DNA of 64,000 nt, counting the filler, from Dirinaria sp. TL-2023a (taxonomy: Eukaryota), in the NCBI GenBank assembly GCA_051941275.1. It is 5 parts of 5 records of this genome, joined end to end, with 100 filler letters (N's around TTAATTAATTAA, not from the genome) between each part and the next. Parts side by side here need not be neighbours in the genome. Positions count along the whole stretch, not along the records: positions 39,063 to 51,954 come from JAVEBF010000729.1; 4 more parts are not named here. One strand, 5' to 3'. Shown piece after piece: positions 3,332-63,100 of the stretch. The position numbers were made by a program, and so were the translations under genes. The notes under the pieces are model-generated. The model was not told the origin of the DNA. It saw only the letters and a program-made list of their open reading frames with translations, and made no database searches. Positions within the stretch are counted from its first letter, which is position 1. Each line of letters opens with the position of its first letter.

Positions 3332-4740
3332 ATGGCGGAAATAGCTACCGTACGATGCTCATCTCGACTGGAGCTCCTTCAACCAGAAATCCAAACTTTA
3401 ATCATGCGCAACATGCCTGAAGTCACAGCACTCCATTCTCTCCTGCATGCTTCACCCCGCTTCTACCAGGTTTTTCGATCTAGGAGAGATTATCACCTTA
3501 CCGAGTTGGCATGTTGGCAGTTCACCTACGATGTGTTCCCCCTTGCATGCGATACGATTAGAGTCTCAAATATGCCTAAACCCATGTGTCGAGAGAGAAT
3601 TAGGGAGTTTCTGCATACCTACTTGGAGAATAAAGAGCACTTTGAAGTCATTTTACCGCCGTCGACGACAATACCTATGATCAGACTGGGGACTCGTATT
3701 CAGTGGTTTGCCAACGACTTCACAAGCAAAACCCTCGAAAATCTAGCCCAGCTAGGTGTCTCGCTTAGCTTACAACAAGACCATGAGCTGCTGCATTCAT
3801 CGCTTTCGCTTACCGAGCTGGGACGCCTTCAAAGAGCCTTTTGTCGATTTGAAACTTATCGGCACTTGTTCTCACCAGACCTCTTGATAGAGCCTTTTGG
3901 CGAAACAATCTTGTCGGCGAACGAGCAGGCACACGCGTTTCTCGAAGAATTTGATGCGGAGGAGGTCGAAGAGATAGCATGTGTCAGGGACTATATCGTC
4001 CGCCGGCTCTGGCACATATTCGACATGATGGAAGACAAATTCGTCGCAGGAGAGCCTCCCAAACTGGATCAGCATGCCGAACCGTATTATGAACATTGGT
4101 ATAGCGAGAGGGGCAAATATGCGCATGATAACCACGTGGAACGACTGATGTCTCATGGCCTGGACTTCTTACGGGAGGTCTTCACTGCCGATATCGAGCA
4201 TTCCACAGCCCTCATACTTTCAAATAGGCTCGATATAGGTGCTTATCTGTCAAAAGCGCTACAGATAAGACTTAGAATGGACAAAGAATCTATCAAGGCT
4301 CTATCGATACGAATGAAGTCAACTCCTTTGAAGTTCCTCGGAGATGACCTGCTAGAGTCAAGCATTGGTTGGCTTTGGGGACATGATTGGAAACCCAAGT
4401 TGGTATCTGCGGAGCCCCAGTTGAAGGGACTGAGGGACTGGGGATATGTATTTTGGGACAAGCGGAGGATAGATGCTTCAGGCGTTCTAGATCGCTGGTA
4501 AATTCTCATATCGTGTCTCATTTGGTTTAAACCGCACTAAGAAAAACAAACAGGTCTTACGAGGTCAAGCCGTACCGCTTTGGCGACTGGTACCGCACTG
4601 AGGAACCCTCCGCTATGGATCGCTTGAAAAACACCCAGGTAAGCTCACTTGAAATATCAGCAACACAGCGCTAACCAATATCCTAGACATTACGCATGTA
4701 TAATTCATTTCAGAAAAAGCCCCAGCACGACATATGGTAA
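3332..4740 (+). CDS. F-box-like domain hypothetical protein
   Basis: 389-aa ORF with an N-terminal LELLQPEIQTLIMRNMP..LHSLLHASP F-box-like motif plus ELGRLQRAFCRFE and LRDWGYVFWD motifs typical of this fungal family. Introns near 4498-4553 and 4639-4686; stop TAA at 4738-4740. Confidence 0.7.
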
Positions 4741-12935: not shown

Positions 12936-13035
12936 NNNNNNNNNNNNNNNNNNNNNNNNNNNNNNNNNNNNNNNNNNNNTTAATTAATTAANNNNNNNNN
13001 NNNNNNNNNNNNNNNNNNNNNNNNNNNNNNNNNNN
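12936..13035. other. Artificial contig-joining spacer
   Basis: 44 N + TTAATTAATTAA (stops in all six frames) + 44 N. Confidence 0.97.
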
Positions 13036-18197: not shown

Positions 18198-19311
18198 GTA
18201 TCATATCTTGGCCTTGGAACCTGCTGCTCGCCAGTCGAAAAGGACTTTCCAGCTCCTGTCTTTTTACTTCGAAACTCGAAAGTTCATCCGTCAAAGGATA
18301 ATGTCCTTGCATCACCGCAGGCGGTTTTGCAAAATTGTATAACATTGTATAGATATCTACGCAATTTGATGACTGGGATTAGAATGATGCGAAAGAGCGC
18401 CACAGGGTGTTTTGTACTTTCATTGTTAAGCAAATACGAAGCTCTCAGCTGCATCACCCACGCTTTTCTGCTTGAGCGCAGATTCTGCGTGGGTTACGTT
18501 TATCCTTTCGTGCATGTCCAGATGACGAGATGGTAGAAGTTATGACCTGATAAAACATCTACCGAGAATTCTTTTATGCAGCGTAGTGGATCTCGTGACA
18601 GCCACGATGGTTGATTGGTGAGATATCACATCTAGGTAATGTCATAGACAGGGGGGGTTTGGGACTGTCTATGAAAGAAAGACGGCGGTAAGGCATAAGA
18701 GTTTTCTCTAAGTTGTATGCTCTGCCACTCGATTTATAGTGACCATGTGAAGAATACTGAACTAATACTGCGACTAATAAGGTAGGTTCCTCATTGATTC
18801 TAGTCCCATCAATTTAAGGTAAGAGGTTTTCACGCTTTCATAGGTTCATGATACTCATGAAACTCTTCGTGTTTTCTTTTATAAGATGAAACCTATAGCG
18901 GAAGATGGGAAGTATGGAAAGAAGATCGCGTTTCCGAGAGTTTGGCGACGCATTTTCGTAAATCTCTTCTCGTCACCAGCCCAGGCTGCGTATTTCGCAA
19001 AAATGGCCGAAACTTCGGTAGGCTCATGATTAATCCTATTTTGGCGTTACTTTCTTTGGCACTAACTACTGTATCAGAGATGTCAGAGACTAGATAAAAT
19101 GTTCGAATTCACATCAGCTCTGACAGTTAAAGACATCTTGAAAAACGCGCAAGACACAGCGTTTGGAGCGCATATTGGCAACCATGACAGCGGCAGCTAT
19201 GATACTGTCAGATCCAAGCGTTGCGGGCCGCTGGCGTTATCCGCTCTTCCCATTCCTACAAATGTTCACTTTTTTGAGGTCAGAATCATTCTTGTATTCT
19301 CATGCTCCCAA

Positions 19312-20340
19312 ATGCCAATGTTCCGTATTTCCATTTACAGCTTCCTCATTACTTTTCTCATAGAGCGAGTCTTCGCTGCCCGTCCAGTGGTTCTCCCTTC
19401 AGATGTTCTATTTAGCAATGCAACCTTGAGGTATTTGGCGTTCTTGGAAGGCTCTGTTTACTTTGTAGCGCTGACATATTCTAGTATACCGTTGAACGTC
19501 TCGCGCACCAATTTACCCGCCACATACATCAGCGTCGTAGGCCATCACGGCTCCTCCGTACCTGATGACACTATCACGTATCGATTCTCGGATGGGCTCA
19601 TGGCTTTTGACGACGTCGCCTTAGCTGTGGCTGAATCCTATTACGAAGCTACCCAACTGCTGAGCTATGAGTACGGGAACGAAAGTCAGCCTGTACGTGC
19701 ACAAAATGTTCGTATCAATGGAGACTTCTATGACTTCGACGTCTCGTCCGACCTCTATGCAGAAGTGGATTCTTTCAAGCTTTGGCATCTGCGGACCGTG
19801 GTGCGAGACCTGATCTTCATGTGGCTCGAATTCAACATGCGTGAATGCACCTTTACGTATCGCGTAGAAGGCGTTGTGCTGCTACAAGGTCATCTCAAAA
19901 ATGGACCCGGCCTTTCTCCACCTCGGGAAATAGCGCCTGATCCTCATATAGACGACTTTTCGGGAGACCTGGTAAAATTCTTCTCGTACGGCGAGCGCAT
20001 CTCGTATGAAGCCACGGTGTTGGCGGCGGTAGACATGTTCAATTTCGGTTGGAACGAGATGGTCGCCCACGAGCAATCTGACGAGGACTTAAGCCTTCGT
20101 GATCAGTACAGTTACGATAAAACCGGAGTTCGATTTGAGATGCAAGCGGCTGAACCTGGTGGGTTTCTGCTTCAGTATCTCATGCATGCTGCCGATGCTA
20201 TTGCTTCATTTGGGCGTACGTTTGATATGCGAGCGTTGAAGTTCGTTCTGGCGTCGGTCAATAAGCCGAAGATAGCGGGTTTTGTGGTGCGCTCTGGGCT
20301 CCAGGCGTTTCCCAATGCTAACTCGACTGCGATTCAATAA
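19312..20340 (+). CDS. Secreted hypothetical protein with two tandem similar domains
   Basis: Signal peptide MPMFRISIYSFLITFLIERVFAA, an in-frame intron 19431-19484, N-glycosylation sequons, and two halves with a similar layout. Confidence 0.65.
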   Translation: MPMFRISIYSFLITFLIERVFAARPVVLPSDVLFSNATLRYLAFLEGSVYFVALTYSSIPLNVSRTNLPATYISVVGHHGSSVPDDTITYRFSDGLMAFDDVALAVAESYYEATQLLSYEYGNESQPVRAQNVRINGDFYDFDVSSDLYAEVDSFKLWHLRTVVRDLIFMWLEFNMRECTFTYRVEGVVLLQGHLKNGPGLSPPREIAPDPHIDDFSGDLVKFFSYGERISYEATVLAAVDMFNFGWNEMVAHEQSDEDLSLRDQYSYDKTGVRFEMQAAEPGGFLLQYLMHAADAIASFGRTFDMRALKFVLASVNKPKIAGFVVRSGLQAFPNANSTAIQ

Positions 20341-25957: not shown

Positions 25958-26057
25958 NNNNNNNNNNNNNNNNNNNNNNNNNNNNNNNNNNNNNNNNNNN
26001 NTTAATTAATTAANNNNNNNNNNNNNNNNNNNNNNNNNNNNNNNNNNNNNNNNNNNN
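25958..26057. other. Artificial contig-joining spacer
   Basis: 44 N + TTAATTAATTAA + 44 N. Confidence 0.97.
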
Positions 26058-38962: not shown

Positions 38963-39062
38963 NNNNNNNNNNNNNNNNNNNNNNNNNNNNNNNNNNNNNN
39001 NNNNNNTTAATTAATTAANNNNNNNNNNNNNNNNNNNNNNNNNNNNNNNNNNNNNNNNNNNN
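38963..39062. other. Artificial contig-joining spacer
   Basis: 44 N + TTAATTAATTAA + 44 N. Confidence 0.97.
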
Positions 39063-39099
<37 letters not shown>

Positions 39100-39193
39100 A
39101 AGGAAAGAAAAAAGAAAGAAAAAAAGGGTAAAAAAAAAGAGACACAGTAGGTTAAAAAAAAGAAAGAAAGAAAAGGCAATTCAAACACCTTAC

Positions 39194-39592
39194 CGGCAGG
39201 GCAATGCCAAGAGTGGTTGCATCGATCTGGAAAACAAAAACGGCGGCAGCGAGGCCTGCGAAGGCGAATTTGAAGGCCAATGGCTTCTTCGGTGAATTCT
39301 CATCCTCATTGTCCCTCTGAGCGGTCCCTACGCCCAGTGTCCCATCATTGCGTTGTGCTGGAGCTTCTGTCTCTAACTTTGGCTCCAGCTGTGACAGTCT
39401 CCGACTAGTGGCCAAGCGAATCTCCGCGATAGACTCGCGTTGGTCCATGGATGTCAGGCCACGGTGAATCTGGACTGGACAAGCTTGCAACTTGGGCAAT
39501 ATCCTGGCAGCTGAAGCAGCCACAGAAGGTTCTGTTGCCAGTAGAGCCGAGGCGAGCGATACGTCTTGACCTTGTCGTCCGGTCATGGACAT
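39194..39592 (-). CDS. MFS drug:H+ antiporter (DHA2-like), first exon; the rest is off the contig
   Basis: KKPLAFKFAFAGLAAAVFVFQIDATTLGIALP is the DHA2 TM1 motif (D.T....ALP), followed by a GTAAG donor at 39193. The start is ATG 39448 or 39592. Confidence 0.7.
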
Positions 39593-41159
39593 GCCGCGGA
39601 GAGCACGGCTTCCGTTCCGCGAGCGGCCCGACAACGGCCCGGCAACGCTGATCCAACGGCCCGAGTGCTTACTTCAGCCATCGATCGTTAAGGCAAAGTA
39701 AGATCACCTTGGCTTAGGTACCTTAAGGTAAGGTACCGTAGTTCGGGAGATCATACACCCTAACCCTAAAACTCTTCCATTTCATGATTCATACTGAGGC
39801 CTACGCAATGTGACTTTTTGCGAGCAAAACCGCATCTCCATCGACATTTCCAACAGATTTGACGGCTTGATGCCACAAAGACTAGAGCAGCTCTGTCCAA
39901 TTTGCTCGAAATCGGAGATTGGAGAAACCTTGATGCCCGCCTCCAAAGGAATATGAGATGCTCGAAAATTTTTTTTTCTATCTGGGTTGCTGGAAGATTA
40001 GAACATCCGGCTAGCTTGACCAGATATCTCTTACATGCCAGTGAAGAAGAAAAAGTGGGTTTTTGGCCTGCACAGTCTCTGCAAAAGATGCGTAGCACCG
40101 CAATGAGAGAAGTGGCATTGCAGAATACCGAGGACAAGAAGCCATTTTTGATTGAACGGGCTGTTCTGTGTGCGTGGTGGACACGGATTCGACTCCGAGC
40201 AGTCGAAACTGCATCCAGTGGTACAATCACGATCATAAAAGGTTTGGATTGCCGATCTATCCTGGCAGAGCTCCGCCTTATCCCCTACGCTAGAGCCTAG
40301 AGCTGCTTTGGTGACCAAAGCTGTTTTCGCAGCACCCGCATCTCTCTCGGCACCCTCTCTGCGAGCCAAAGTCGCGACCTAAAAAGCTACGTTTGAAAAC
40401 ACGAGCTATCCAGCCCTGCTTGGGAGTTCGGATATGCTCTTAATTGTACGCTCTACTTAGTGCAAATGCCGACTTTTTGAACCCAACATCTCCACAGCAC
40501 TTCATTCATCAGGTACATCGCTCTCGCAACGATCCAGCAAGCTAGATAGGCTTTCCTACGCTAATTTTGCCGGCACCAAGACCTACGATTCTCGATTCAC
40601 CGAGGTGGTGATTGGAAAGAATGCAGCTGACCATCGGTGGACTTCTGTCGAACAACATCTTCGATCAACGTCAGAAAAGGATGTACATTGATTGATTGAT
40701 TAAAAATGCAATTCGCCGTTGATCGCAGCTCTGGGTCACAAATGGACTATGGCTAATGAAAATAACATTCAAGTACTTTAATGACTCAGTGGTTTCAGGC
40801 GGACTGACAGATGATCTCACATGGTCATAACTTGCCAACCTGTTTTCCAGTGGCAGCTTACTGTCTGCAATCAAATCTGTGGATTGTTTTCAGGCTCACA
40901 CATAGTCAAATTTTGATCATGGAGAGTACTCCATGGAACGCACGACAAGACGGCAGGAAAGACTGCCTAATCACCAGCTAAGTCAGCTGTGTGGAAGCCT
41001 AAGGCTTAGCATGGCTACCCGCTAGAGCGCTCTTAAGAACACGTACGGTTTGGCTGACCAATGGTGACCATTCTGAATCTTATGATAATACAAATGACAG
41101 GAGCTAATGCTGAAAGTGCAGTTGATATTGACTTAGACCTCCCGAAAACTAGTATGCGA

Positions 41160-42428
41160 TCAGATAGTTGAAGAGTTCGAGCCTCTGGATCTCCGCATCT
41201 CTTCGCCGTCCTCCCTTGTCATGGCTTCCCATTTCCGCCTCAGAAAAGGCATAATTAGCTATCCCATCACCACAGAAAGTAAGGAATCAAATATGCCCCA
41301 TCCTCTCTTCGGCGACAGGCCGATCACGTTGGTAAACAAAGCCGAAGCCGCCAGTGAGTCCTCACATATAATGAAATCCCCACGGTCCACTGCTGCAGTG
41401 ATGAGAGCAGCAACTTTCTCGGAGGAAGGAAATTTAGCTTCCAGTTCAGCGGCTGTTAAGTTGGTTCCTTGAATCCGTTTCGTCAGCGGAGTCTTCGTTG
41501 TCTGTTCTAGCTTGAAACCAGGGGATAGGAAATCCGCTGGGAAGGCACAGTGGATCGAGTATGTTGATCTGGAGCTGCAGTATCGTAGCACTTCCATCCG
41601 CAGTGTATCCGCCAACGCTCGGACCGCGCTTTTGGCCGCTTTGAAGGGAAGATCATGTCAGCGCAGCCTATCTTGAGGATTTCTACGATGATGCAGGATT
41701 ACTTACGAGTATAAGCAATAGAGCCAGGCAAACCCAAGAACGCGGCGGCACTGTTGACAAAGATGATCTGACGAAGTCTGGGCTGAGGACGTGGTTGAGC
41801 CTCTTCCTTGTCATCCTCTGTCCAAATATCGAGCATAGCCTTTGCAGCATAAACAGAAGAGTGGTAGTTGTTCTTCATACACTGATCAAGATCCTTGGCC
41901 TTGATATCAACCAGAAATCCATTTTCAGCATGGTTGCCCCCAGCAGTACAATACAAGATGTCTGCAGTCCGATGCTGTGCCCTGAAGGCTTCGTCAACCT
42001 AAAGATTCTGTTAGATTTCATTTTGGCTTATCCGCCATCTTTCTCCCGGATGCTTTCATGCATAGGGCAATACCTTCGAGGCATCAGCCAATTCAAGGGA
42101 AACGGCATTGACTTCTTGGCTTTCTGCCCCGCAGGATGCGACTACCTCTTGCTTTGCTTCTGCCAGAGGACCCGATCTGCGGGAGAATAAGGTGATATGG
42201 GCCCCTGTTCTTGCGAGGTCAGCAAATCCGTCGTTTCAATTCAACGCCCACAGCTTTACTAACCCCGAGCAGCCAACGCCTTGGATATAGCTTTTCCTAG
42301 CCCTCCAGAGCCGCCAGTGACAAAGACGGTCTGCTCATGGTGTCAGTGTGATCAGCGAATGCATCACAACGAGCTTTGTGCTTTGTCTAAGTGCTCACTT
42401 TCCCGCGGAGGTTTTGAGCTCCTTTCAT
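41160..42428 (-). CDS. 3-ketosphinganine reductase-like SDR (Tsc10/KDSR family) with a premature TAG near the C-terminus
   Basis: MKGAQNLRGK|TVFVTGGSGGLG Rossmann motif, NNY, catalytic S (NSAAA) and YT|PAK, ADTLRME and FPADFLSPGF..EQ.TKT..TK.I. TAG at 41261-41259 is followed by an in-frame LIMPFLRRKWEAM tail to TGA 41160. Confidence 0.85.
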
Positions 42429-45400
42429 GTTATCTAACGAACCACGCAGTTAATGTTGTCGCGTTGTTCTAAGTCATTCAAGATGTCGAAGTGCGCGTCA
42501 GAACCAGGTCTCGTGCAGTTTTCGATCAAAATTCTAGGCCAAGACGTCAGGATCAGTCCATCATCGTATATTTGTCAAACGCGGCGATATGGCCATTTAC
42601 ACTCAGGGCACTCCAATGAGCGCCGGTCGAGACGGCCATCGGCACGCAAGTTAGCGCATTTACTGTCTACGACAGAGGATCCGGATCCGGAGGAGGACTT
42701 GAACTTCAGTGACGCCGTTGTCTGTTCTGGCTGAGCTGGAAACCGCTCCCCCGAATGCGGCCGGCGGGTCCCGATCGCCGTGGGAGACTAGGCAGCTCTC
42801 TGGTCTACAAGAGGCCCGTTGCTTTTCATTGGGTCCCGCCATGTTGAGTGCCACGTTCTCGTTTCTTCATTTAGTGGAGCGATTCGCCATCCTCAGAACA
42901 CATTATCTTGATCGATGTGGGCCTGGCCCGGCACACCACTACCTCCCTTTGCTCGAGAATCCACGCCTCCCGTTACACCTAATGAGCAAGCATCTGGCCA
43001 TCCATCATGGGGAGATTCAGTCTACACTTGCTGGACTTCCACCCTCTGAGTACCTTTATACTCTCACTTGATCTGCATCGGCATCGACCAAAACAAACGT
43101 TTAGAAAGCGCAGTTTCTTCTTGAAGTTAATCACGAGTACATCTTCGCTACATCTAATAGAGAAAGAGATCATCTAGCTGCATGCGAGTAAGCACCGAAG
43201 TTTTTCTTCAGCATGCAACACCGAGTTTTTCCTTCCAATCACATACCTGAAAGTCAGCCGCATAGCGAACGTGTTGAAAATCTCAATTGCGTCTTTGTCT
43301 GGCCAGCTTTTGTCTGCCTTTGCTAGCATGAAAATATACATGGGGCTGCCCGTTGGCACTGTGCATATCTTGCACTTGCATCTCCAAAACAATTTCATGC
43401 TAGTGCCAAAATGTTTTCTAGCTGACCGAGATAGTAGGACACAACAAGCTGCACGCGCTGCGAGCATATGATAGCAGTAGAGTAAGAAGACTTCATGTCA
43501 GATAATGGTAACGTGTGAATGACTTTCTGTCAAGATTTCAAATTCTAATTAAATTTGAATTCACAAAATCTGCGCATGCTAGTTGGATCTTCTAAAGATG
43601 GTCCTAAAAGGCTAAATTGCGTTGAGAAGGTCAGAAAATTCTGCTAGCTCTTAGCGGTTCTTTGATGATGACTATATGGTTTCTTCAGCCATTTGCAATC
43701 ATCTCTGTTTGGGAAGCTGGACCTTTCTATTAGGTTCAGATACTGTCTGATTAGATCTAGCGGATGAACATGATATTGCTTGCAACGTGAAGATGCAATT
43801 GAGAGAAAAAACGTGTTGCGGATGTGTACGAATAACGACTTTTTAATCGTTGACTTACGACAAAAACACGTCGCCACGTTCATTTCACATAGACAGACGT
43901 CTGCCAAGCCCATGACTACGACTATCGACATAATTCGTCTAGATGTCGACAGAGCTTGGCAAAGAGTGACTCAGATATGTTTTATCCGAGAATTGAAGAT
44001 ACCGTGCGAGTGCTGATTAGAGGCTGAGGACCGAGAAAAACGTACATGCGTCAAATTTACAGAGTCCCGTACGCACGTAAAAAAAGCGATAAGATCGAAA
44101 AAGGTGTGGTTCAGCCAGTTGAATAAAGCTGAATAAGCCACCACATCGAACAAGACTCATGCCGACCAAAGAAAAGTACACCGAGGATAACCTCAACAGC
44201 CATGCTCGATGGATAACTAATCCCAACCCCGATACTCTCAGGTATATCTCCGCCGCGCACCCAATGAGCAGCCCAATGAAAGTCGTCATAGATTTCCACA
44301 TTAGGAATATCTCTGGGCGTCGTAACGGTAGTGCTACACCACCTTCTTCCCATTCATCGTATGACGATCCTTCCTTGCTGGGAAATTTCAAGCGGAGCGA
44401 GGAGAGGATGGTGTGATACCCAAAACGGGTCCATCTGTGATAAGGTATGCGGAAGCGTTCCATCCCGGCTGAAATCTCCTTCCGCATAGTCCTTTGACTT
44501 ACCTAATCTTCATGTATCGTGGTGTGGGAACGGGACGGGACGAACATCCCAAAGCCGGTAATAATACCTTCTGATAATGCGTATTCTTACAGTTGTGAAA
44601 GAGATCGACCGTGCGTTTGACTGCATATCATTCAGAGGCGTTGCTGTCGCCGGTGTGGACATCACCGAGGTAGCAGACCTAGAATGAGGAAATACCTCAT
44701 CTCCCTTCTATTATCACCTCTCACTGAGAGTATGTAGGATACAGAGATCGTCGTAAGAGCTCTTTGTGTCAGAGGGTCTACCAGAAGAAATAGAACGTCA
44801 ACAATATTGTACGACTTACGAGTCTCTTTCTACGATGCTGTCATGCAGATTACTACCGATCCATCATCCACCGTCCACTATTACGCCATTCTTACTTGCG
44901 AAAGTAAGTAAAAACATGTTCAAAACATGTTCTACAAGTATTTTCGTAGAAGCTGGACAGATTTCCGGCACTGAAAAACAAGGCTTGGAAGGCCTTTCTT
45001 CCATCGGAGTGCCTAAGATATCTGCCGAGTATTTCTCAATCTCTTGTCTTTAGTGCCGGCCTTGGATGGAGTAGTATATCTAGACCCGACATTCCGCTAA
45101 AATTTTAGCATGCATAGACGCCTTGTAGATCAATCGCACTCTCTACTGCTATTGCCTATGCCATTTTCAACCATACATACACCGTTCATGGCATCAATGA
45201 ACGACGAGTCTTGACCTCTTGTCACTTATTCGATTTTCAGGGCAATCCCAGCAAACCATCATATTAGTACCTTGTATCATAGGGTATTGAGCCTTGTTAA
45301 CACAATAGCTAAACCGAGCGTGTCCGGAACGGTTGTTCTTTTCATACGCTTAAAGTTTTACCATTCATATCGAGGACTATGTCTTCCGCAAATTAGGCGA

Positions 45401-45481
45401 TGCTATTGTTTTTGACCATTACGTTTTCTCGATTTGTTTCGTCGATAAACCATTTTCCTCTCTTTCAGCTTGCTCGACGAA

Positions 45482-47968
45482 ATGACCAAGGAAAGCAATA
45501 GAGAGGAATATACAGGTAGGTCAACAGATATCCTCGGCCAGCGGCCCTGAACAAAACAAATACTTAGATAGAGCAAGTGTGTGACCAGTGCCGGGCCAAA
45601 AAAATACGCTGCGGTAGAGAAAAACCTTCCTGCGGGAATTGCAAGAAGCTTGGCTTGCATTGTGAATGGTCTGGTCAAGGCAAAAAGTGCAATCAAACAG
45701 CTCTATTGTAAGTGTGGCCCTTGGCATGTTTTCATAAGATTACTCCTAGCTCACGATTGAAAGAAGCAATACCATCTTAGGATTAGGCAGTCGCCTTCAA
45801 CATCTAGAGGTGAGTGGCACGGTTCACACTTGTCCCTATGTCAGCTTATTGATAATCTATGAAGACTGCTATAATGGACACTCAATCATTAAAACGACTG
45901 CTCGATGAGCCTTCGGCTGTCTTATCTACTGGTACAAGACGCACCCCTAGTCATTTAGAACACACAATTGAGTCCTCCACAAGATGGTCTCCAGAAAGCA
46001 ATGGACAACCATCCTCACAATCGTCAGCGAAAACTATCTTTGTCAGGACGATGGGTCGGTTTCATAAAGACAGCAACAACAGTGAAAGATATTTTGGTCC
46101 CACATCTCTTGACTCACTTATGCTAGATATGAAGGATGTCATCGCGGAAGACCTTGAAATTGAAACTCCAACCTTGAGGGAATGCGTTCTGCAAGCACAG
46201 CGCAGAATTGATGATTTGGTTGGCCAAGGAGAAGATGATTTCACCATCGATAGGTCGCCACCCACGGCTCCTCCTTTCGCCATCTTGGACGCTATGATTG
46301 AGCCATACTTTGCCACATTCGGTAAACACGTTCCAATTTGGAGAAAAGAAAGCTTCAATCGAATGGCTGCCATCCTGCGAGAATCAACGCCTTCCGAACA
46401 AGACTTGGCGTCCATCATATGCTGTAACAACCTCATTCTTATGGCGCTCTCAGCGAATACATTATGTTCTCGTCGGGCAGATTCCCTTCGAACTAAGCAG
46501 GCAAGCAAGAACTCGTCCATCGACTCAGATGTCATTTCAGGGTTTCTGAATAACGCGAAGCGCGCTCTCAAAAATATCGATCAACTTGTTTCTCCTCGGC
46601 TTATAAATGTCCAAGCACTCTTATCTCTGGTATGTACCTTACTGAGACTTCTTATCCTCTGGTGTGAAAGAAGTGCAGACCATAGCTGACGAGATGGAAT
46701 TGCAAAGTATGTAGTAGCGCAAGAGCATCTCTCTATAGGCTTTTCCGAGACGCTGTTGACTCTAGCTGTTCGATGTGCAAAATCTATAGGTATCCACCAA
46801 TGGCATTTTCTTCAAGACCAACTTAGCGAAGAAGACGTCAAAGAAAGAAGAAATATATCGTACTACATACACGCCCTTGACAAGGCAGTCTGCTGGACCG
46901 CTGCTTCCTCTCCAAATGTACCTAGCGCTGACGTCCAAGTTGACTCAACCTTGATTCGTCTGAAGAAGGCATCAACTCATTTCTTGTAGCGAGAGCAGAG
47001 CTGGCGACCATCGAGGAGACCATCTACTTGGAAACATATGCCAATCAAAGCAAGGCAAAATCCGAAGAACAAGCTCGTCATTTTGCAACAACGACTCTAT
47101 CGAAACTCCAGTGCTGGCTGACCAACTCTGGAACTAATTTGGATGACATAATGAATAACCGTGGAAGCTCCGCCTGGAAGGCTCAGCTAGCGATCAGCTT
47201 CCTATGTGTAAAGCTGCTGCTGATTTGGCCTGATAGGGGCCATCCGGACGTCCTATTCCAGCACAGTCAAGAAACGTCCAGAACGTGTATGAGACTTTTG
47301 CTAAGTCTCTGGCGCCTCCCGTCAGATCAAGGACATCACGCAATCTTCCCACTGTGAGTTTCGAGCATTCGATACATGTTGTGACCATTCAAGACTCAAA
47401 ACTCAAGAAGCTGAACTCATGTGTCTGCTCTAGGTTTCTTGCAACTCTTCCACCACTATATCTGTACGAAGTATTGACAAGTATCCTTTGCGGTCAAGGA
47501 ACTAAGTTGGACATGGACATGCTACAAGACTTCATCGAGATGCTCCAGGTCGTCACCGACTACCGCGGAGAAAGGTCGTACAACAAGCGGCTACACCAAA
47601 TGGCACTTATTGGTATGGACGTGATAAAGGCCCAAAGAAACCAGCACAAACGGCACAGATCGAATTTCGAAGGGCCAGCAAATGAACAACTATCCCAAGC
47701 CGATACAACGCCACTGCCCAGTTCAATATCAGACCTACTTTCGTCACCTGACAGCAGCTGGCGCTACACGAACAACGCGGATGACCGAGAAGCCGATAAT
47801 CCGAGTTTCAACATTCTTCAAGACCCGGAGAACTTCATGAGGGCGATTAGCTCGGCGAACGATGGGTGGTATCGGGGTTCGGATGAGTTTTTGGCGCCGC
47901 ACATGGGAAGCTGCGCGAAGGCGGTGCCGCATAATCCCAATTCTCTGGCATACAATTGGAATTTTTGA
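45482..47968 (+). CDS. Zn(II)2Cys6 transcription factor with fungal_trans-like domain (apparent frameshift near 46955)
   Basis: MTKESNREEYT|EQVCDQCRAKKIRCGREKPSCGNCKKLGLHCEW, then RYFGPTSL, VQALLSL, AKSIGIH and ERRNI..LDK. Introns are in phase, but one base is missing near 46955. Confidence 0.85.
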
Positions 47969-48691
47969 AAGATTCCGGCAGTAATGAGGGAGTTTCAATT
48001 GATAGAAGTTGATTCTTGAGCGTTGAACTTTCGGGAAAACGCTTTCCCTTGATATGTGTAGACGTTTTCGACTATCGATTTGGCTTATGGTCAGGACGTC
48101 AACATAGAAGCGTTCCACAGGCGGTATTGATGTATCAATTGTCCTTCCAATTTTACAGCTATTCGCACAAAAGTCAACATGCAAGGAGACATGTAGGGAA
48201 TCTGATACAAATCGTCACGCATGTCACAGAGTTGCTGACATGATTACATAAGCAAGAAAAGAGTGCACGGGCTCCCTCGGCTCCCGGTCGCTTATTTCGG
48301 AAATTCTTTATGCCGAGCTTCTTGGCATATCGATGTGTACACGATGTAAGTAATCTTACATCACCTTATTCAAACCCACAACCCTCGGCCATCATGCCAA
48401 TGCGAACTTCAGTTTCATCGAATATGTAAATTTCAACGACTTCTCAATTCGCGTCCCGTCGTAAGCCCATAATCTCCGTTCTATCAGCTCGGCTGTTGCG
48501 ACAGGAGGGAGTTATCCCCATGGTTTGTGCTCACCTTCCACCCATTCAGGGCTTTGCAAGGCAGGCACCAGTGCTGACCAGCCAACTACCTGATCTGTGT
48601 CCGTGATAGATTTGAAGGAGGAGGGGAGGACTAGATTCGCAAAACATCGTTTGTCGCTCTATACAACTTGTATACACCACATGTCCCAACC

Positions 48692-50253
48692 TCACGCATT
48701 CTCGGCCATCATCGCGTAAACCTGCTGCGCAGCTTTCGGAACCTTTCCCTTGCGCTCCGCCCCCTCCTCGATATCGATCATCTCTTTGGCCCACTCGCAA
48801 ATCGTGAACGCCAGAAATTTTACCTCCTTTTCCGTGTTTCCGGCATGGATCATGATCCTGATTCTACCCTGTCCTTTGGGGACAGTCGGGTAGTCGAGAG
48901 GAGCCGCCGATATTCCGTTCAATTGCATGTGGAAGAAGAGCCACCAGTTGTATCGTTGGCGGGTCCAGACCGGAACTATGTGCACGACGAAATCACATGA
49001 TTGGTAATCCTCGCTTACGGGGATAGAGAGGATACCGAGGTCGTTCGCTTTGTCCCAGATGGGGTTGGAGCTGATCGTTGTGAAAAAGAACTTGACGAGG
49101 TGTTGAATGTTGTCTGTCAACTGAGTGCTCGGTGAGTATCTCGATAATCCGGTTTTACAAGTGACAGGCAAGGGGGAGAACCACCTGCGTGTTTTCTTGC
49201 CAAGTGCTTACCTTCTGCGCTTCGCCTGTCCTTAGCAGGCTATATGCTGCCCGGATACCTGCCACCGAAGGGAAGGAAGGGGCCGTGCTGTATATCACTG
49301 AGCGTGCGAAGTTCAACAAAGTATTTCGTACTGTCGCATTTGCGAGTATGACAGCTGTGGGATAATCCGTCAGCAAAAACGCTTAAAAGAGGAGCTGGAT
49401 CTTGAAAAGTGGTGATCTAACCGCCACTCGAGGCCAAAGCCTTTCCACACGTATGGAGTCGGACTGCGATTTCTTTCTCAACACCTAGCGCGCTGACAAG
49501 ACCCGCACCCTTGGGGCCGATGATTCCGGTGGCGTGGGCTTCGTCCACAATGAAGGCGAAGTTCCCCTTGGTACAGATTTCCCTCGCGATCTCGAGTAGC
49601 TCTAACAGGGGGCAAATGTCACCATCCATACTGTATACCGACTCTACGGACACAAGAATCGAGCGCGATCCTTCTTTGACCATGGGCTGAGCGTCGATGA
49701 TAGACGACAAGACGTCTCGAAAGGAGTCAACATCATTGTGGCGGAAGGCGACCCTGGTCTGGGCTAGCGAATGCGCCATGCCGTCGTGCGTGCTCGCATG
49801 GCATAGCTCGTCGTATACGATGACATCGCCGGGCCTTGGGATCACCGTGTAGATGGCAAAATTCCCATCGAATCCTGAATTGGCCATGAGCGCCGACTCG
49901 GCGCCGTGAAAGTCGGCGATTTCTTGCTCCACTTTTTCGATATAGTTATAATTGCCATCCATTATACGGGACCCCCCTGCATATATCGCGAAGTCCGGGT
50001 ACTTAGCCAGCTCGGCCAAAAACGCGATTCGCAGCTGGCCCGAGGATCCAAGCGACAGAAGATCGTTGAAGCAGAAGTCGACGGCGTCGCCTGTTTTCCA
50101 CGAGTTCTGGACGCGCGTGAACATTGAGTGGCTGGCTCTTCGAACGTCCAAAGCCTCTTCGAGATTGCGGTAAAAGGTCGGCGCATCTTTCATCTTAGGA
50201 CCCTGAGGTTTCTGAGTCTTGATCCAGGAGGTCAGGAAGGTTGCAGCTGCCAT
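48692..50253 (-). CDS. PLP-dependent alpha-oxoamine synthase (class II aminotransferase; BioF/SPT-like)
   Basis: Motifs GGSRIMDGN, NSGFDGN, YDELCHASTHDGM, FRHND, VESVYSMDGDI, IVDEAHATG, catalytic Lys in HTCGKA, IYSTAPS and PTVPKGQGRIRI; two introns. Confidence 0.93.
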
Positions 50254-51954
50254 GATGAGGTCGTTGAACTTGACTAGCAAAACGTGGAGGATGGGATCGA
50301 CAGTGGGGATCGACAATGGTCTGTGAGGGCCATATAACACAATTTAAACACTACGAAATCTTACTTGCTATGAATCCAGCCCATGCAAAGCAAAATTTCT
50401 TCGACTACTTCGACCTTCATCGGCATTTCGGTCCGTGGCTCGGTGGACGGGTTCCGTCCGGAAAAGCGCAGCGCCTGCTCCTACGATACCTCTCGTACGT
50501 TATGAAACGGCCGAAAGCATGAAAACTCAGCCACCCGTGATCTTCTCGGACCGATCGTGGATGATGAGGGATAATGGACGCGCTACCATGTCAGGTTGTC
50601 CTATTCTCGATGGTTTTGGCATCACTATCATCACGTGGCTCTATCATCGAAAATGATAAAGGCCGTATTTGGAGGCAGTGTACATGTATGATGGTCAAGC
50701 TGCACAGTCCTCAAGCTACCATGGGCAAACGAGCGGTGGCTTATGGCTTACCTCAGGCACCCTCAAATACGTGCCCAAGGAGTGTAGGATGTTGCGTACA
50801 AAGGCACTTGCTGTATCACGGGGCTAAAACAGAGACTTCCTTATCTCATGCCTAAGTAAACCCGGAAGTATATCTTCTTATTACTGGATACATCTTAGTG
50901 GCTCTCTTATCCCTTTTATACAAGTCTTACTTGGCAGTATGGCTCCTGTTCCAGTAATGGAATATCGCAAGTGCTTTCAGTGCCCATGAAACAATCATTG
51001 CCAAAACAGTCAGATATGATGGAATCTGTATTAACAGTGCTGCGTCCGGCCATAGCTACTCCTTTTAACTAGGCGACTAAAAACCTCTGTAGGCGGGTCG
51101 GCCGAACGCCATTTCAGGGCGGTTGAGGAAACCACATGAGATGCTGGAAGTGCTCTATGTATACATGTCAAAATGGTTACGAAGACTACTGCCAAATGCG
51201 TCTGGAAGATCCATCTGTCCTGGCCACTGTGCAGTACATAGCAATGGCTGAAGGCCCATCGTAACGACGTCCACGAGTCAGCTGACTATAATATACGCGA
51301 CCTGACATACCTATGTAGGCACACTAAATAGGCACCCACAATGGCATCAATGGTGTCATCTGCCCAAGGTATTTTCGACCTGCCCGTGACTGGATGCAGG
51401 GGTTGGCATCTAGACACTGTCTCCTGGGCAAAGAACGCACTTCCCGCTTCCACAATCGGAAAGTACTGGCTAGTTATAACAGCCCTAAAGACTGCTCTAT
51501 AACTCTAATTGGTGGGAACATACTAATCTAGCGCGGTGAATCGCTATGAACTCCAATGCCTCAGTATTCGAAATGATGAATTTGCACCGTATCGCTCTTC
51601 TTTCTTTTCTATCTCATTATCTAGAACTTTGTTCTCATACTGAACGAAATAGACTCGTTGGTGGCGATGGCGTAAAGTCAAGGCCAGGACATTTACGCCA
51701 GCTGCGACCGTATCGCGCACCACGGAATCCGTACTTTACTACTGCTTCTCGATTCCAAATGTTCGTCCGGAGGTCGCGACCCAGTCTGCCGACCATGGTC
51801 CGGCGCTAAGCTCTCAATTACAACTTAACGGCCTTGAGTTAGCGCTCACCAAGCAACTTCTATCCACAGTCAACATAAAAGATAATTTCGGCCTACCTGT
51901 GCATAGGGGTTGTAGGCATTAACGATCACAGCGTCGTCATGGGGTTGCAGCCCA

Positions 51955-52054
51955 NNNNNNNNNNNNNNNNNNNNNNNNNNNNNNNNNNNNNNNNNNNNTT
52001 AATTAATTAANNNNNNNNNNNNNNNNNNNNNNNNNNNNNNNNNNNNNNNNNNNN
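51955..52054. other. Artificial contig-joining spacer
   Basis: 44 N + TTAATTAATTAA + 44 N. Confidence 0.97.
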
Positions 52055-52181: not shown

Positions 52182-54269
52182 CTACATCCTAAAAACCCCG
52201 AACCGCGTCTCTCTCCCCCTTTTCTCATCCCCCAACGAAAAAGCGGCATCCAACCCCATAGCCAACACCCGCCGCGTATGTGCTGGCGGAATGATCCCAT
52301 CGTCCCAGAGCCGGGCGGAAGAATGAACCGCATCACTCTCCCGCTCGATCCTGGCCGCGAGCGCCGGGTCCACGGTCTTCCCTACCGTTTCCATCACCGC
52401 GCTCAGCTGCTCGGAACCCATGACCCCGATTTTCGCTTGGGGCCACATCCAGAGGAAGCGCGGGGAGTAGGCTCGCCCACTGTTGGATTCGGTTCTTGAG
52501 TCAGCTGCTTTTTGTTTTTTTTTTTGTTTTTTTCCTTTTTTTTGCGCAATACCTCCACTGGTCGAGTATGCGAGATTAGGAGAAAACTCACCACATGCCA
52601 TAATTGCCCGCGCCGGCACTGGCGCCCACCACAACGGTGAACTTGGGCACATCGGCGCACGCGACCGCGGTCACGAGCTTGGCGCCGTTTTTGGCGATCC
52701 CGCCGCGCTCGGCACTGGCGCCGACCATGAAGCCACTGATGTTTTGCAGAAAGATAAGAGGGATCCGTCGTTGGGTGCAGAGTTGGATGAAGTGGGCGCC
52801 TTTGAGGGAGGATTCGGAGAATAGAATACCGTTGTTGGCGAGGATGCCGATGGGGTGGTCGTGAATTTTTGCGAAGCCTTTATTATTGAAGGGGAACGAT
52901 GGGGTTTAGTGCCCTGGGGTCTTGGGTGTACGGGAGAAGGAGGGAGCTCACCTGTCACTAGCGTCTCCCCGTAGTCTTTTTTGAACTCGGCGAATTCGCT
53001 GCCGTCGACGATCCGAGCGATCACTTCTCGGGCGGGAAACTGTTTTCGGAGATTTAGGCCTACTATACCTCCAAGCTCTTCGGGGTCGTATAGAGGCTCC
53101 TTGAATGAGACGCTTGGTGCCGCTGAACGAGGCCAGTTCAAATTACTGATGCATCTCCGTGCGAGCACCAGGGCGTGCGCGTCGTCCACAGCCAGATAGT
53201 CAGTGACGCCGGAGACGGAGCTGTGCATTCTCCCTCCTCCTAATTCTTCTGCAGTGACGACTTCGCCAGTGGCAGCTTTTACTAATGGAGGGCCGGCGAG
53301 GAAGATTGTGCCTTGGTTTTCGACGATGATGGACTCATCGGACATTGCGGGGACGTAGGCACCGCCTGCTGTACAAGGTCCCATTACGACGGATATTTGC
53401 GGTATACCTTGAGAGCTCACTGCGGGTTGTGTCAATATCCTTTTTTTTTGTGCATAAATTTGGTAGCGCTCGGCGTACTTCGAGCTTGATTATAGAAGAT
53501 GCGGCCAAAATGATCTCGGTCAGGAAAGACGTCTGCCTGATGAGGTAAATTGGCGCCCCCTGAGTCTACAAGGTAGATACATGGTAGCCCTACGGATTGA
53601 GCCTTAAGCCTTCATCGGAGTTGTATGAACAGCATGATCTTACGGTTCTCTTGAGCAATTGCTTGGGCTCGGAGGTGCTTTTTCACCGTGATGGGGTAAT
53701 ATGTACCCCCCTTTACCCTGCAGACCCAAATGAGCTCATTGAATTCCCCTAGAGTGTAACAGAGCTATACGTGCTGTCGTTCGCTACAATCATACACGAT
53801 ATACCATGGACTGATCCGATCCCGGTAATGATACCGCCAGCCGGTACATCTTCGCCTGGGTAGACTTCATGGCCGGCCAGCGAAGACAGCTCCAGGAACG
53901 GAGTGGCGGCGTCTAGGAGTGCCGTGACTCGACTGTAGACGATCAGACCTTATGAGACTTCACATTTATGTTGTTCTTAATGTACTCTCTAGGCAGCAAT
54001 TTTCCCCTTGCGACATGTTTGTCCCTGGCTTTTTCCGTCCCACCCTTCTCGATTCTGCTATGGAGCTCTTTCATCCGTGCCAGCACATCATTGAACGCTC
54101 TTGCATTGTCCTTGAACTCCGCAGACGCGGAGTCAACAGCACTCGGAAGGATTGAGAGCGCAGTTGCATGATGGTTATACGTGTGCGTTGCGATTGACCG
54201 ACAGAGGGTAAGGTTCCGGCAGATGCGGCTTCGGTATGCCAAAAGGCTGAGCCTTTGAGCAACCCTCAT
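52182..54269 (-). CDS. mccB: 3-methylcrotonyl-CoA carboxylase beta subunit, mitochondrial
   Basis: Mitochondrial-type presequence and motifs [71 protein letters not shown] and FGVFRM. Confidence 0.95.
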
Positions 54270-60186: not shown

Positions 60187-63100
60187 ATGCCCAAGGATAA
60201 CAGAGGCCCAAATACTAGCGGCACGGTGCCGTGCGCGTGAGTCCTCAGCGGAAACCTTTTGACTAACTGTTGCTGAGGACATCTAGGCTACACGACTATC
60301 TGCGTAAGAACGACAGTGCTAGCTCTTTTGCTAAATTGTCTGACCGAGAATGTCGTTTGGCTTTTCAAAACTGGGTAGCGTACGGCAGGACACCCATGCC
60401 GAGTACTGCAACGCAAGAGCCCATGACATGCCCACTGTTGTGGTGCCGCCACAGATTCGACACCTTCGCATCGTGCTTGCAGCACGTATCGGCATGCCCG
60501 TGGCTGCCGAACGCTTTCTACTGGTGTCCTCAATGTCAGCGCGCAGAAAGGTTCATCGCAGGTGATGCAATGATAGCGACTGTAGATCGCTCGGTGTCGC
60601 CGCAGAGGCAAAACTCGAAGATGAGACGAGCTGTGTCCTTCTTCAAGCACCTTGGGCGAAAGAGTTGCGCTCATCCCCCCTTGATAGAGAATCAAGAACG
60701 CCGCACAAGGCTCGATGCTGGAAGTCTAAACCTGACTGGAAATCATGTACCGATGCCTAAACATCCACGAGTTAATGAAGACACTTGCAGTCGAGAGAAT
60801 GATTTCGAACCTTCACAGTGTCGACAAAAACTTGAATCAACTCTTCACTCTCCATCCGTCGAGCAACCATCCCGACGGACTCAAGAATATGACGGATATT
60901 TCATTGATCAAAGTGTCCAGAACGTCCAAAGAGACTTGACTCGCCGTGTCAGTCGCGAGAAGAATCTCGTCCCCACACAGCGCGCAAGGCGCCAAACATT
61001 GTATGACATGGAGGGAAATGCGCTTAGTCCCTTGATGAGTCCAAATATCGAGTCAAGCAAACAGGATATCGCTGAACTTGCCACTGATGATCCTCTCTTC
61101 AACTCGAGTCAGCTTGGTGATACCAGCGTAACACCACTAGCCACAGGCTTTCTTTCGCGGGATGAGCGCCAAATGAGCCTTGATCAACGTTTACCAACCC
61201 ATTATGGTCCCTTCTCCTTGAGTTTGAGCGCTGCCAAAGCCGAGGATACTTGGAGGGCCTACTGGCCAGCCATCGCTCAGGAAAGCCGCCTTCAAAATGT
61301 AACCGGTGAGGTAATAACCGCCCAGATTGATAATGAGGACGCACAGATGCAAGATATCAATGCTGCAGTGGTTGGCTTTCCAATTTCTCAAGCAGATCAT
61401 AGCACGGAAACTGTACCACCGAAGTACAGCACAGACGCAAAGATTTCCAAGCATGTCGCCAAGGACTCAAGTGCGGAGAATCTTGTTCAAGAGCTTCACA
61501 GACTTGTCCGGGGCTTGAATTATTACTGGTCAGAAGAAGTCCTCGAGAGCTCCGATTCTACTGGAATCCAAGCTACAATCCATGGCATGTCAGCTTTTGA
61601 AGCAGGGTTGCGATCTTTACAACAGTGTTTCCGTGGATCATTCACAACCACAGTGGAAGGAGTGCTATCGTTGGCTCAGCTTGCGCTGTCCTGCGCATAC
61701 GAGCTTTATGAACAAGATTTAGCTTTCCCGTGGCAGGATTTGCTTGGAGATATCATGGACTGGAGCCATGCTATACCGGCTGGAGATGATCGACAATTGT
61801 ACGTCAACACGGTGAAAGTTCTTTGGGCTCAGATGCAAGGCCCATCGATTCAGGCTTTGCCAGAGCCTAGTCCTGATCCTGATGCCACCAACCAACACAC
61901 AGACAATCCAAGCTCCGAATCCAAAATGGAGGACACCAGCTTCCATGTAACCGAGCCAATAGACATTTCCATGGCTTATTCTGATCTTGCATTTTGTCCA
62001 GTGCCAGAAGCCAGTGGGACCGAAGCGACCATGTTCGAGCCTAGGAAACGAGGTTTGGTCATCCGCACCTGCTCTCGGTACCTTAATGGTAGGCTACACC
62101 CTCTTATAGTCGCAAAGCTCAGCTAATCATTCCTCTTGAAAGTCCTCGAGCATGCAAAAATGGTCGCTCGCGCTGAAAACGACTCAAGCACTCTCGAACC
62201 GCCTACCGCTCCATCTTCTGCAAATGTCGAAAGGGTCGAAACCCTGATCATTCAGCCTCTAATGGACTGGTGTGGTATCGCGGCATTTCAACAAAGCCTA
62301 GTTTACACATTGAACATGCTATACAAGGGCTTACTGAGAAACATACATGATGTCGAGATCGCGCTTACCGAGAGCGCTAAGGTCAGGACTCTATTCTGTC
62401 CCCGATTTTACTTCCACTAATATTGGAAAGGCTTGTAACATCAAGGCTTACGACCGTGAAGTGTACTGTACACTTGTTGCGACTCTCTGCGACCAGTCAA
62501 TGCAACAGCGCCCGAGGTGGCGCGATCGTTACTATGCGACTTATATCGATAATGCTTTGGCTGTCGCTCTAGAACAAGAGAACAGGAAGCTGATATCGAA
62601 CAAACCGAGTAACAAGCGACCTCCACCCATCGACGTAGACCTGGCGAATAGCAATTACAGTCAAAAATTTCTTGAGCATCTTTCAGCGACAGAACTGAAA
62701 GCAAGTGCAAGTACCACGGGATCTCAGTCATCAACAGAAATATCTAGCGTCTTTGAAAGTCCCGCCTCTGCTGTATTTAGCAGCGCAAGCCACTGTAAAA
62801 GCACATCATGGCTGACGCCGCAATCTTCACCTGAATCTTCGTCCTTTGCCGTGCCACGCTCGCCGATATCGCCCTGCACGCCCTTCAGATCACCCATATC
62901 GGCCAATCCATTCACGTTGATATCCGCAAGCACACCATCACCTACATCTACACAAGCAACGTCCACATGCCTGAAATGTGGGGCGAGCTTCACTGGCAGT
63001 CAACAACATCGCGCATCGAACCTCAAGCGGCACGAACGAACCATGCATAAGCGCGGAGCAAAGCTGGTTTGCGCCGAGGGAGGTTGTGGAGTCGAGTTTA

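Follow-up and report, generated by a model that had tools for sequence, protein, structure and literature searches.

A 64-kb stretch of assembled DNA from Dirinaria sp. TL-2023a (GCA_051941275.1), referred to here as the window, was analysed. Its fourth piece (positions 39063-51954, 12.9 kb, from JAVEBF010000729.1), called the contig below, is very probably a part of a myriocin/sphingofungin (SAM1-like) biosynthetic cluster of an ascomycete. Four genes are recognised on this piece, the transporter gene by its first exon, and their order along the contig is major facilitator superfamily (MFS) transporter first exon, short-chain dehydrogenase/reductase (SDR), Zn2Cys6 transcription factor (TF, the regulator) and alpha-oxoamine synthase (AOS). 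The gene models were built by hand from three-frame translation, splice signals and homologues. By sequence, the AOS, SDR and regulator are closely related to sphA, sphF and sphG of the sphingofungin cluster, whose counterparts in the myriocin cluster are myrA, myrF and myrG. In the trees described below, the SDR and the regulator are placed on the sphingofungin-like (Clade II) side and branch outside the Eurotiales/Onygenales rows. What is established here is the identity of these three parts at the sequence level, together with the neighbourhood in which they lie and the condition of their reading frames. The initial annotation had listed four genes on this contig, a pyridoxal-phosphate AOS, an SDR, a Zn2Cys6 regulator and an MFS transporter. 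All of them were found and both end coordinates were exact: 39194 is the final base of the first MFS exon, with a GTAAGG donor directly after it, and the AOS start codon begins with the A at 50253. Its proposal of a sphinganine-analog cluster core was also borne out, and the AOS, SDR and regulator are nearer to sphA, sphF and sphG than it had supposed.

The family to which the contig is assigned has been described recently. According to Rutter et al. 2026, 170 myriocin/sphingofungin clusters containing a polyketide synthase (PKS) were found in 1,112 Pezizomycotina genomes (PMC13612406). The family occurs in Sordariomycetes, Dothideomycetes and Eurotiomycetes with 4 to 8 homologous genes per member, and its fingerprint is an iPKS, an AOS and a KDSR (PMC13612406). 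Two main clades were distinguished, the Xylariales-rich Clade I, with the gene order sphD-myrH-myrA-myrF-myrB-myrG, and the Eurotiomycete-rich Clade II, in which the accessory genes, myrA excepted, lie downstream of the PKS. Members that have lost genes, and PKS genes interrupted by multiple stops, were recorded in the family as well (PMC13612406).

The AOS gene (48692-50253, minus strand) has three exons (50253-49422, 49354-49212 and 49120-48695) and a stop codon at 48694-48692, and the spliced model encodes an intact protein of 467 aa with zero internal stops. Exon 1 (277 aa) matched PF00155 with an E value of 3.1e-20 (73.1 bits, cut-off 19.7). When the same exon was compared with solved structures, only two matches were obtained at E<=1e-30, namely 9dos (2.4e-134) and 9pep (9.5e-134). 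The latter is deposited as 'Aminoacyl transferase sphA', and 9DRI, which has the same sequence as 9dos, is named as SphA of sphingofungin biosynthesis in a 2026 review (PMC13351049). Consistently, the Monosporascus homologue P0004 (72% identical to the AOS) matched the SphA structures at 1e-210 to 1e-214. Every non-SphA structure, KBL included, scored 1e-41 or weaker against P0004: 2.5e-41 for ALAS, 7.5e-35 to 1.5e-27 for BioF, 1e-31 for bacterial serine palmitoyltransferase (SPT) and 2e-27 for human SPTLC2. The AOS is 72% identical to DL770_004839 of Monosporascus, and Monosporascus sp. CRB9-2 is given among the sources of close MyrA homologues (PMC13612406).

The pocket residues of the AOS were compared with the published lists. 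The MyrA list comprises N63, H152, M209, A231, D237, K271 and R413 (PMC13612406), and six of these seven residues (N63, H152, M209, D237, K271 and R413) are present at identical numbers in the AOS. Position 231 is an N in the AOS, and an A is found at 233. For SphA, N135, H156, S158 and D241 are listed (PMC13351049). In the alignment with 9dos, the pocket residues N, H, S and D and the catalytic K line up with the AOS, when the numbering of the review is mapped onto the chain with an inferred offset of 17. In a tree of 48 rows, for which 47 of the 120 matches listed were hand-picked for spread, the AOS fell into a four-row clade (99% SH-aLRT, starred by the tool) together with Monosporascus DL770_004839, a Cercospora berteroae protein and a protein from the metagenome-assembled genome (MAG) of a Coniocarpon lichen. 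A second A. fumigatus AOS clade (43% identity) and the Mortierellomycota proteins lie far away from this clade. A metagenome scan with AOS exon 1 returned 20 loci at 33-43% identity and no close relative. These results indicate, at the level of sequence, that the AOS is of SphA/MyrA type.

The SDR gene (41160-42428, minus strand) encodes a KDSR-like protein of SphF/MyrF type in five exons (42428-42399, 42330-42264, 42204-42074, 41998-41707 and 41638-41262). Exon 4 matched adh_short weakly (24.8 bits, cut-off 26.6), and full-length SDR homologues match adh_short/KR clearly. The protein carries the motifs T15GGSGGLG22 and Y172-x3-K176 (Y172TPAK176), and the nucleotide-binding motif of IsMyrF, as quoted in PMC13612406, is the same as T15GGSGGLG22 letter for letter. 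Its identity is 79% to the metagenome protein P0125, about 70% to proteins of Hypoxylon trugodes, Monosporascus (DL770_004840) and Paecilomyces variotii, and 67-69% to Aspergillus proteins. Among solved structures outside its own clade, Cryptococcus TSC10 (8jat, E 3.4e-23) is nearest to the SDR family, so the SDR is KDSR-like, yet not close to that enzyme. A tree of 62 rows was built with 61 of the 75 matches (those of at least 280 aa; 14 shorter ones were excluded). In this tree, the SDR, P0125 and 13 Eurotiomycete proteins form a 15-row clade with 98% SH-aLRT. The Eurotiomycete rows are from Aspergillus, Penicillium, Trichophyton and the sphingofungin producer Paecilomyces variotii, and the second SDR copies of Monosporascus and Parahypoxylon are placed outside this clade.

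As assembled, the SDR stops at codon 300 of 332 with an in-frame TAG (41259-41261, minus strand), in a column that holds Trp in 19 of 25 homologues. The TAG is followed by 32 further conserved in-frame codons and then by a TGA at 41162-41160. An intron that skips the stop was considered and rejected, since the sole GT...AG pairs around the TAG span less than 35 bases. In the AlphaFold model of P0125 (mean pLDDT 89, pTM 0.89), a helix at 269-277 is followed by a low-confidence loop and a long terminal helix at 289-326. The TAG column corresponds to residue 300 of P0125, within the terminal helix, and 27 of the 38 helix residues would be lost while the catalytic domain is left whole. The C-terminal helix-loop-helix of SphF sends a reporter to vesicles derived from the endoplasmic reticulum, according to Jojic et al. 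2024 (PMC10936153), and this region is not intact in the SDR as assembled.

The regulator gene (45482-47968, plus strand) is of SphG/MyrG type and has six exons (45482-45515, 45578-45707, 45764-45809, 45865-46629, 46708-47353 and 47434-47968). It carries the canonical six-cysteine Zn2Cys6 motif, and the region 45568-45708 matched Zn_clus with an E value of 7.6e-11 (42.4 bits, cut-off 21). A weak, sub-cut-off Fungal_trans match (E 0.0066) was obtained for one exon, and PF04082 is recorded in 49 of the 52 regulator homologues. The nearest of these 52 relatives are Eurotiomycete proteins with 53-62% identity, and the read-through regulator shares 53.5% identity over 667 aa with 'transcription factor sphG [Aspergillus thermomutatus]'. 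In a tree of 47 rows (6 of the 52 matches, three near-duplicate P. variotii rows and three weak ones, were excluded), the regulator belongs to an 18-row clade with 100% SH-aLRT that includes Talaromyces, Paecilomyces, Penicillium, Nannizzia and Aspergillus proteins.

The reading frame of the regulator is broken at 46944-46989 (plus strand): the frame shifts at about 46953-46955 and the resulting stop lies at 46987-46989. The tblastn segments of three homologues change frame at about 46953 without a gap in any of the homologues. The product is 418 aa as assembled and 718 aa if read through with an X, and the truncated protein would keep the DNA-binding domain and lose about 300 C-terminal residues. 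An intron as the explanation of the frame change was rejected after 30 GT-AG candidates had been inspected. None of them restores the frame without losing the conserved 'FLVARAELATIEE' stretch, and all remove conserved residues or have poor donors.

The MFS gene (DHA2/TRI12-like) stands at the sphD position. Its first exon (39194-39448, minus strand) encodes the N-terminal tail and the first membrane helix; the frame is open upstream to 39673, and the true start may be further up. The start of the first intron (39063-39193, minus strand) has the GTAAGG donor at 39193-39188 and runs into an A-rich tract (T-rich on the gene strand). The exon is 72% identical over 39 aa (E 3e-11) to the Talaromyces marneffei MFS protein P0361, which matches MFS_1 at 6.7e-32 and TRI12 at 8.4e-09 in Pfam. 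Almost all of the 45 proteins obtained at E<=0.001 in an exhaustive search of representative proteins were short first-exon fragments. The Pfam search of the exon itself gave no match, and tblastn with MFS parts found nothing on the contig besides the known exon. Of the DHA2-like exporter proposed in the initial annotation, a first exon that matches an MFS_1/TRI12 protein is present, and the more specific call rests on one helix. The contig starts with a run of about 37 A (39063-39100), followed by an A/G-rich low-complexity tract within this intron, and the tract is probably the reason why the assembly broke here.

The arrangement of these genes in other genomes was read from locus tags, and placement on the same contig was inferred from matching contig sizes. 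In Monosporascus sp. CRB-9-2, the AOS, SDR and TF are DL770_004839, DL770_004840 and DL770_004843. SDR and TF pairs were found in A. fumigatus (KXW98_008552 and KXW98_008551), a second A. fumigatus strain (KXX67_007542 and KXX67_007543), A. felis (CNMCM5623_003953 and CNMCM5623_003954), A. viridinutans (Aspvir_008104 and Aspvir_008105) and F. austroamericanum (FAUST_11079 and FAUST_11077). The TF and SDR tags thus follow one another directly in three Aspergillus species, and their numbers differ by two in F. austroamericanum and by three in Monosporascus. Many more SDR/TF pairs have contigs of equal size, such as those of A. thermomutatus, P. variotii and several Hypoxylaceae. In the closest relatives, the MFS first exon and the SDR have matching contig sizes as well (2851718, 8789 and 8440). 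Co-location in related genomes, on which the cluster proposal of the initial annotation depended, is consequently seen in Aspergillus, Monosporascus and Fusarium, where the locus tags make the genes neighbours.

Several public gene models (P0020, P0046, P0054, P0061, P0086 and P0285) fuse the AOS or the regulator with an MFS, TF, FAD monooxygenase, glyoxalase-like or P450 neighbour. In P0046 (Purpureocillium lavendulum), an AOS is fused to a TF part that is 37% identical to the present regulator (E 1e-42). P0020 (Hirsutella) joins an AOS to an MFS protein, and P0285 (A. lentulus) joins a TF to a P450. These fused models look like gene-model errors that incidentally show the neighbourhood.

Only the AOS is complete and undamaged as assembled, and both the SDR stop (41259-41261) and the regulator frameshift (about 46953) were absent from the initial annotation. 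Past both lesions the codons are still open and conserved, as expected either of a very recent mutation or of an assembly error. Long unbroken exons elsewhere in the window, including a 444-aa NPR2 exon (profile positions 14-438 of 440) and open reading frames (ORFs) of 619, 441, 424 and 391 aa, count against a generally error-ridden assembly. Repeat-induced point mutation (RIP) as the cause of the lesions was rejected, because the dinucleotide indices of all contig parts are far from RIP values. We lean slightly towards both lesions being real, in which case the contig would be a recently disabled, decaying copy. That they are assembly errors in an intact cluster, with its remaining genes past the contig ends, has a chance a little short of even. 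The statement of the initial annotation that the cluster makes a compound goes further than these data allow: no PKS is present on the contig, and the SDR and the regulator carry disabling lesions as assembled.

If the contig belongs to this family, its genes would take part in a pathway that can be outlined from published relatives. A highly reducing PKS would build a C18-type chain. The AOS would, by analogy, off-load this chain from the PKS carrier domain through a decarboxylative Claisen condensation with aminomalonate to give a 2-amino-3-keto acid. The reductase would then convert the 3-keto group to a 3-hydroxyl, and oxygenases and an acetyltransferase would decorate the molecule. Expression would be driven by the Zn2Cys6 factor, and export presumably falls to the MFS protein. 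The compound published for this family inhibits SPT.

The function of the sphingofungin cluster was reportedly shown by Bissell et al. in 2022, and also by Jojic et al. in 2024 (PMC10936153). The present contig resembles this cluster (sphA-sphH of A. fumigatus and Paecilomyces variotii) in several respects. The AOS matches SphA at about 1e-134 with the catalytic residues kept, the SDR is in the Aspergillus/Paecilomyces clade, and the regulator is in the Eurotiomycete clade with 53.5% identity to sphG. An MFS gene lies beside them, and the SDR and TF are neighbours as in Aspergillus. In contrast to the sphingofungin cluster, no sphB (the PKS), sphC, sphE or sphH was found on the present contig, and the AOS follows the regulator but is encoded on the other strand. 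With identities of 53-79%, the lineage would seem to lie outside Eurotiales and Onygenales. Moreover, the present SDR lacks most of the vesicle-targeting C-terminal helix, and the regulator is truncated.

The putative myriocin cluster (myrA-myrH of Isaria sinclairii and Mycelia sterilia) belongs to the same family by the definition given in PMC13612406. It shares with the present contig six of the seven MyrA pocket residues at the same numbers and the identical MyrF motif T15GGSGGLG22, and the closest named AOS, that of Monosporascus sp. CRB-9-2, is among the close MyrA homologues given in PMC13612406. However, the present SDR and TF are on the Eurotiomycete (Clade II) side and not with Xylariales. 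A SAM1-like cluster linked to sphingofungin was described by Kim et al. 2020 (PMC7376913). The Fusarium SAM1 and SAM1-like clusters have the same PKS, aminotransferase and SDR core logic, with a TF, MFS, dioxygenase and P450 in SAM1. F. austroamericanum and Fusarium sp. 66182, which hold SAM1 (PMC7376913), are among the relatives of the present SDR and TF, although the Fusarium TF is more distant (50-51% over 75% of the query exon). The fumonisin cluster (Fum1 PKS, Fum8 AOS and Fum13 reductase) also uses AOS release followed by 3-keto reduction, and Fum13, like SphF, complements yeast tsc10. It differs in its AOS lineage (MyrA-Fum8 identity below 20%, PMC13612406), in its amino substrate, which is alanine, and in its target, ceramide synthase. 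The primary enzymes Lcb1/Lcb2 (SPT) and Tsc10/KDSR catalyse the same two reaction types with the same folds, but they are far in sequence (1e-16 to 1e-31 for SPT structures and 3e-23 for TSC10) and are not clustered with a pathway regulator.

Some observations weigh against assigning the contig to the myriocin/sphingofungin family. The order MFS-SDR-TF-AOS fits neither of the published clade patterns exactly. No PKS, P450, dioxygenase or acetyltransferase was found on the contig or in the 64-kb window by Pfam and tblastn searches. When the P450 portion of P0285 and the FAD portion of P0054 were searched against the contig by tblastn, the matches were at chance level only (E>=3.8). The transporter is known from one helix only, with the remainder of the MFS gene off the contig. 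Both lesions could be assembly errors, the downstream codons being still open and homologue-like. The AOS tree has no row named SphA or MyrA, and true-length SphA/MyrA orthologues are missing from it because the AOS protein search covered proteins of 486-2000 aa only. The Aspergillus SDR rows have no sphF name in their source records; the SphF label is given because their locus tags adjoin sphG-type regulators and on the basis of the literature. Of the core trio, the AOS and the reductase are there; one end of the contig lies 1.7 kb upstream of the AOS, the other within the MFS gene. Since the published family spans 4 to 8 homologous genes, the missing tailoring genes do not exclude membership.

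A different explanation for the absent PKS is a reduced cassette in which, once the PKS and tailoring genes had been lost, a SphA-type AOS and a reductase were kept, alone or with a transporter, for another job. Such a cassette could make a simple 2-amino-3-hydroxy lipid from a fatty acyl-CoA, or could serve as a sphingolipid back-up that confers tolerance to the SPT inhibitors of neighbours. This idea gains from published work: SphA is an aminotransferase and SphF a 3-ketoreductase, both can feed normal sphingolipid synthesis, in A. fumigatus they can sustain sphingolipid synthesis and make myriocin less toxic, and yeast tsc10-1 is complemented by sphF (PMC10936153). L-serine is also accepted by IsMyrA (PMC13612406). 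The AOS is, in addition, the sole undamaged complete gene, and the contig and window yielded no PKS. However, a contig of 12.9 kb that ends inside the MFS gene leaves room for a PKS past either end, and no demonstrably PKS-less relative was present among those seen. A premature stop in the reductase and a frameshift in the regulator would also be unexpected in a maintained cassette, and we consider this explanation quite unlikely. A related possibility, itself unlikely, is that the cluster is dead and the AOS is retained as an SPT-inhibitor-resistant second route to sphingoid bases. The PKS and tailoring genes would then be gone, the regulator broken and the reductase perhaps without its membrane anchor. 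If so, the retained AOS would protect from the sphingofungin/myriocin-type compounds of neighbours, and a resistance function would have evolved from a biosynthetic gene.

Membership in another SAM cluster family (fumonisin/AAL-toxin, AOD = SAM5, or SAM2-4) must also be weighed, because the PKS, AOS and SDR logic is common to all of them, often with a Zn2Cys6 factor and a transporter (PMC7376913). It is very unlikely in view of the E value of 1e-134 against SphA structures and the MyrA-Fum8 identity below 20% (PMC13612406), and the relatives of the regulator include a named sphG and proteins of the SAM1 holders F. austroamericanum and Fusarium sp. 66182 (Kim et al., PMC7376913). The initial annotation had itself pointed out that the AOS and SDR might be housekeeping BioF and Tsc10, in which case they would lie close together by chance. 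Automatic annotation does label their relatives '8-amino-7-oxononanoate synthase' and '3-ketodihydrosphingosine reductase tsc10', and Cryptococcus TSC10 (8jat, E 3.4e-23) is the best solved relative of the SDR family beyond its own clade. In contrast, P0004 matched BioF structures at 1e-27 to 1e-35 and SphA at 1e-210 or better, and no bioDA or bioB lies beside the AOS, a Pfam search of the spacer ORFs having found no biotin gene (bioDA, bioB) on the contig. Monosporascus CRB-9-2 has a second SDR (DL770_009764, 44% identical) besides the clustered one, a second AOS clade (43% identity) is present in A. fumigatus, and SDR-type genes adjoin sphG-type regulators in at least five species. With the SphA structure scores and the placement of the SDR in its tree, chance proximity of two housekeeping genes is hardly credible, and a piece of a myriocin/sphingofungin cluster is the preferred reading.

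As a piece of such a cluster, the contig is a further carrier of a published family and opens no new chemistry or biology. The novelty implied in the initial annotation is not upheld, as the family was mapped in 2026 (PMC13612406) and putative SAM clusters in Lecanoromycetes and three other classes were reported in 2020 by Kim et al. (PMC7376913). Sphingofungins and myriocin inhibit SPT, and their clusters are used to trace the spread of inhibitors and self-protection in fungi. An SDR and a regulator that branch beside, and outside, the Eurotiales/Onygenales versions could help to date or root the sphingofungin-like clade. If the lesions are real, the contig would be an example of very recent inactivation, as already documented for related Fusarium clusters; pseudogenised SAM genes with internal stops were described by Kim et al. 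2020 (PMC7376913).

The initial annotation had also raised the idea of a lichen fungus as the host. The trees gave it no support: the SDR and the regulator fall among Eurotiomycete versions, and in the regulator tree a separate clade is formed by the regulators of two lichen MAGs (Calogaya and Gyalolechia). The present contig is not grouped with the clusters of lichen-fungus MAGs. As a separate observation, AOS proteins of lichen-fungus MAGs (Teloschistales, Coniocarpon and Bathelium) occur in a 17-row clade (99% SH-aLRT) with the SphA/MyrA-like group. The lichen-MAG relatives of the AOS and TF are P0007, P0008, P0010, P0013, P0015, P0017, P0320 and P0323, and two MAGs have related regulators. 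The presence of related AOS proteins and two related regulators in these MAGs indicates that related clusters exist in lichen fungi.

About 6.9 kb of the contig, in four stretches that were absent from the initial annotation, is without a recognisable gene. The spacer between the MFS start and the SDR end (39449-41159) holds no recognisable gene, and among its ORFs of at least 35 aa, zero Pfam matches at E<=1 were obtained for 39660-41170. The 3.05-kb divergent spacer between the SDR and the regulator (42429-45481) has no recognisable gene, repeat or RNA family. Its longest ORF (44020-44502, minus strand) had a recognition score under the level stated by the tool, and its best protein-atlas match was below 0.9. 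The convergent spacer between the regulator and the AOS (47969-48691) has no credible Pfam match, and the 1.7 kb from the AOS upstream region to the contig end (50254-51954) contains no recognisable gene. Pfam matches were obtained for 6 of the 125 spacer ORFs of at least 35 aa, all sub-cut-off and unrelated and none in 39660-41170, and no P450, dioxygenase, acyltransferase or PKS was among the Pfam matches of these 125 ORFs. Searches of the contig for repeats and for Rfam families found none.

The window consists of five pieces of about 12.9 kb each, separated by eight N runs with TTAATTAATTAA between them. The spacers between the pieces (12936-13035, 25958-26057, 38963-39062 and 51955-52054) are N runs around TTAATTAATTAA. 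The five pieces are apparently ordered by length, and adjoining pieces are not genomic neighbours. The other four pieces encode ordinary fungal genes, including NPR2, a sugar transporter, TrkH, a carboxyl transferase, a Ras-type GTPase, DUF7702/RTA1, a GST and an alpha/beta hydrolase. A protein-atlas comparison of the NPR2 exon returned Ascomycota as the taxon and nothing narrower. No PKS domain was found among 74 ORFs of at least 110 aa on these four pieces. A foreign or contaminant origin of the contig was rejected, because its GC content of 0.48 is inside the range of 0.455-0.50 of the other four pieces, which carry ordinary fungal genes. Three open frames of 619, 424 and 391 aa (60267-62123, 19066-20337 and 3326-4498, all on the plus strand) have no Pfam match at E<=1e-5 and may be fungal genes without a described domain. 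At 52185-53489 (minus strand), two ORFs in the same frame are separated by one stop codon and match a carboxyl-transferase domain at profile positions 121-287 and 388-478. The interruption is probably an intron with an in-frame stop, and it could also be another lesion.

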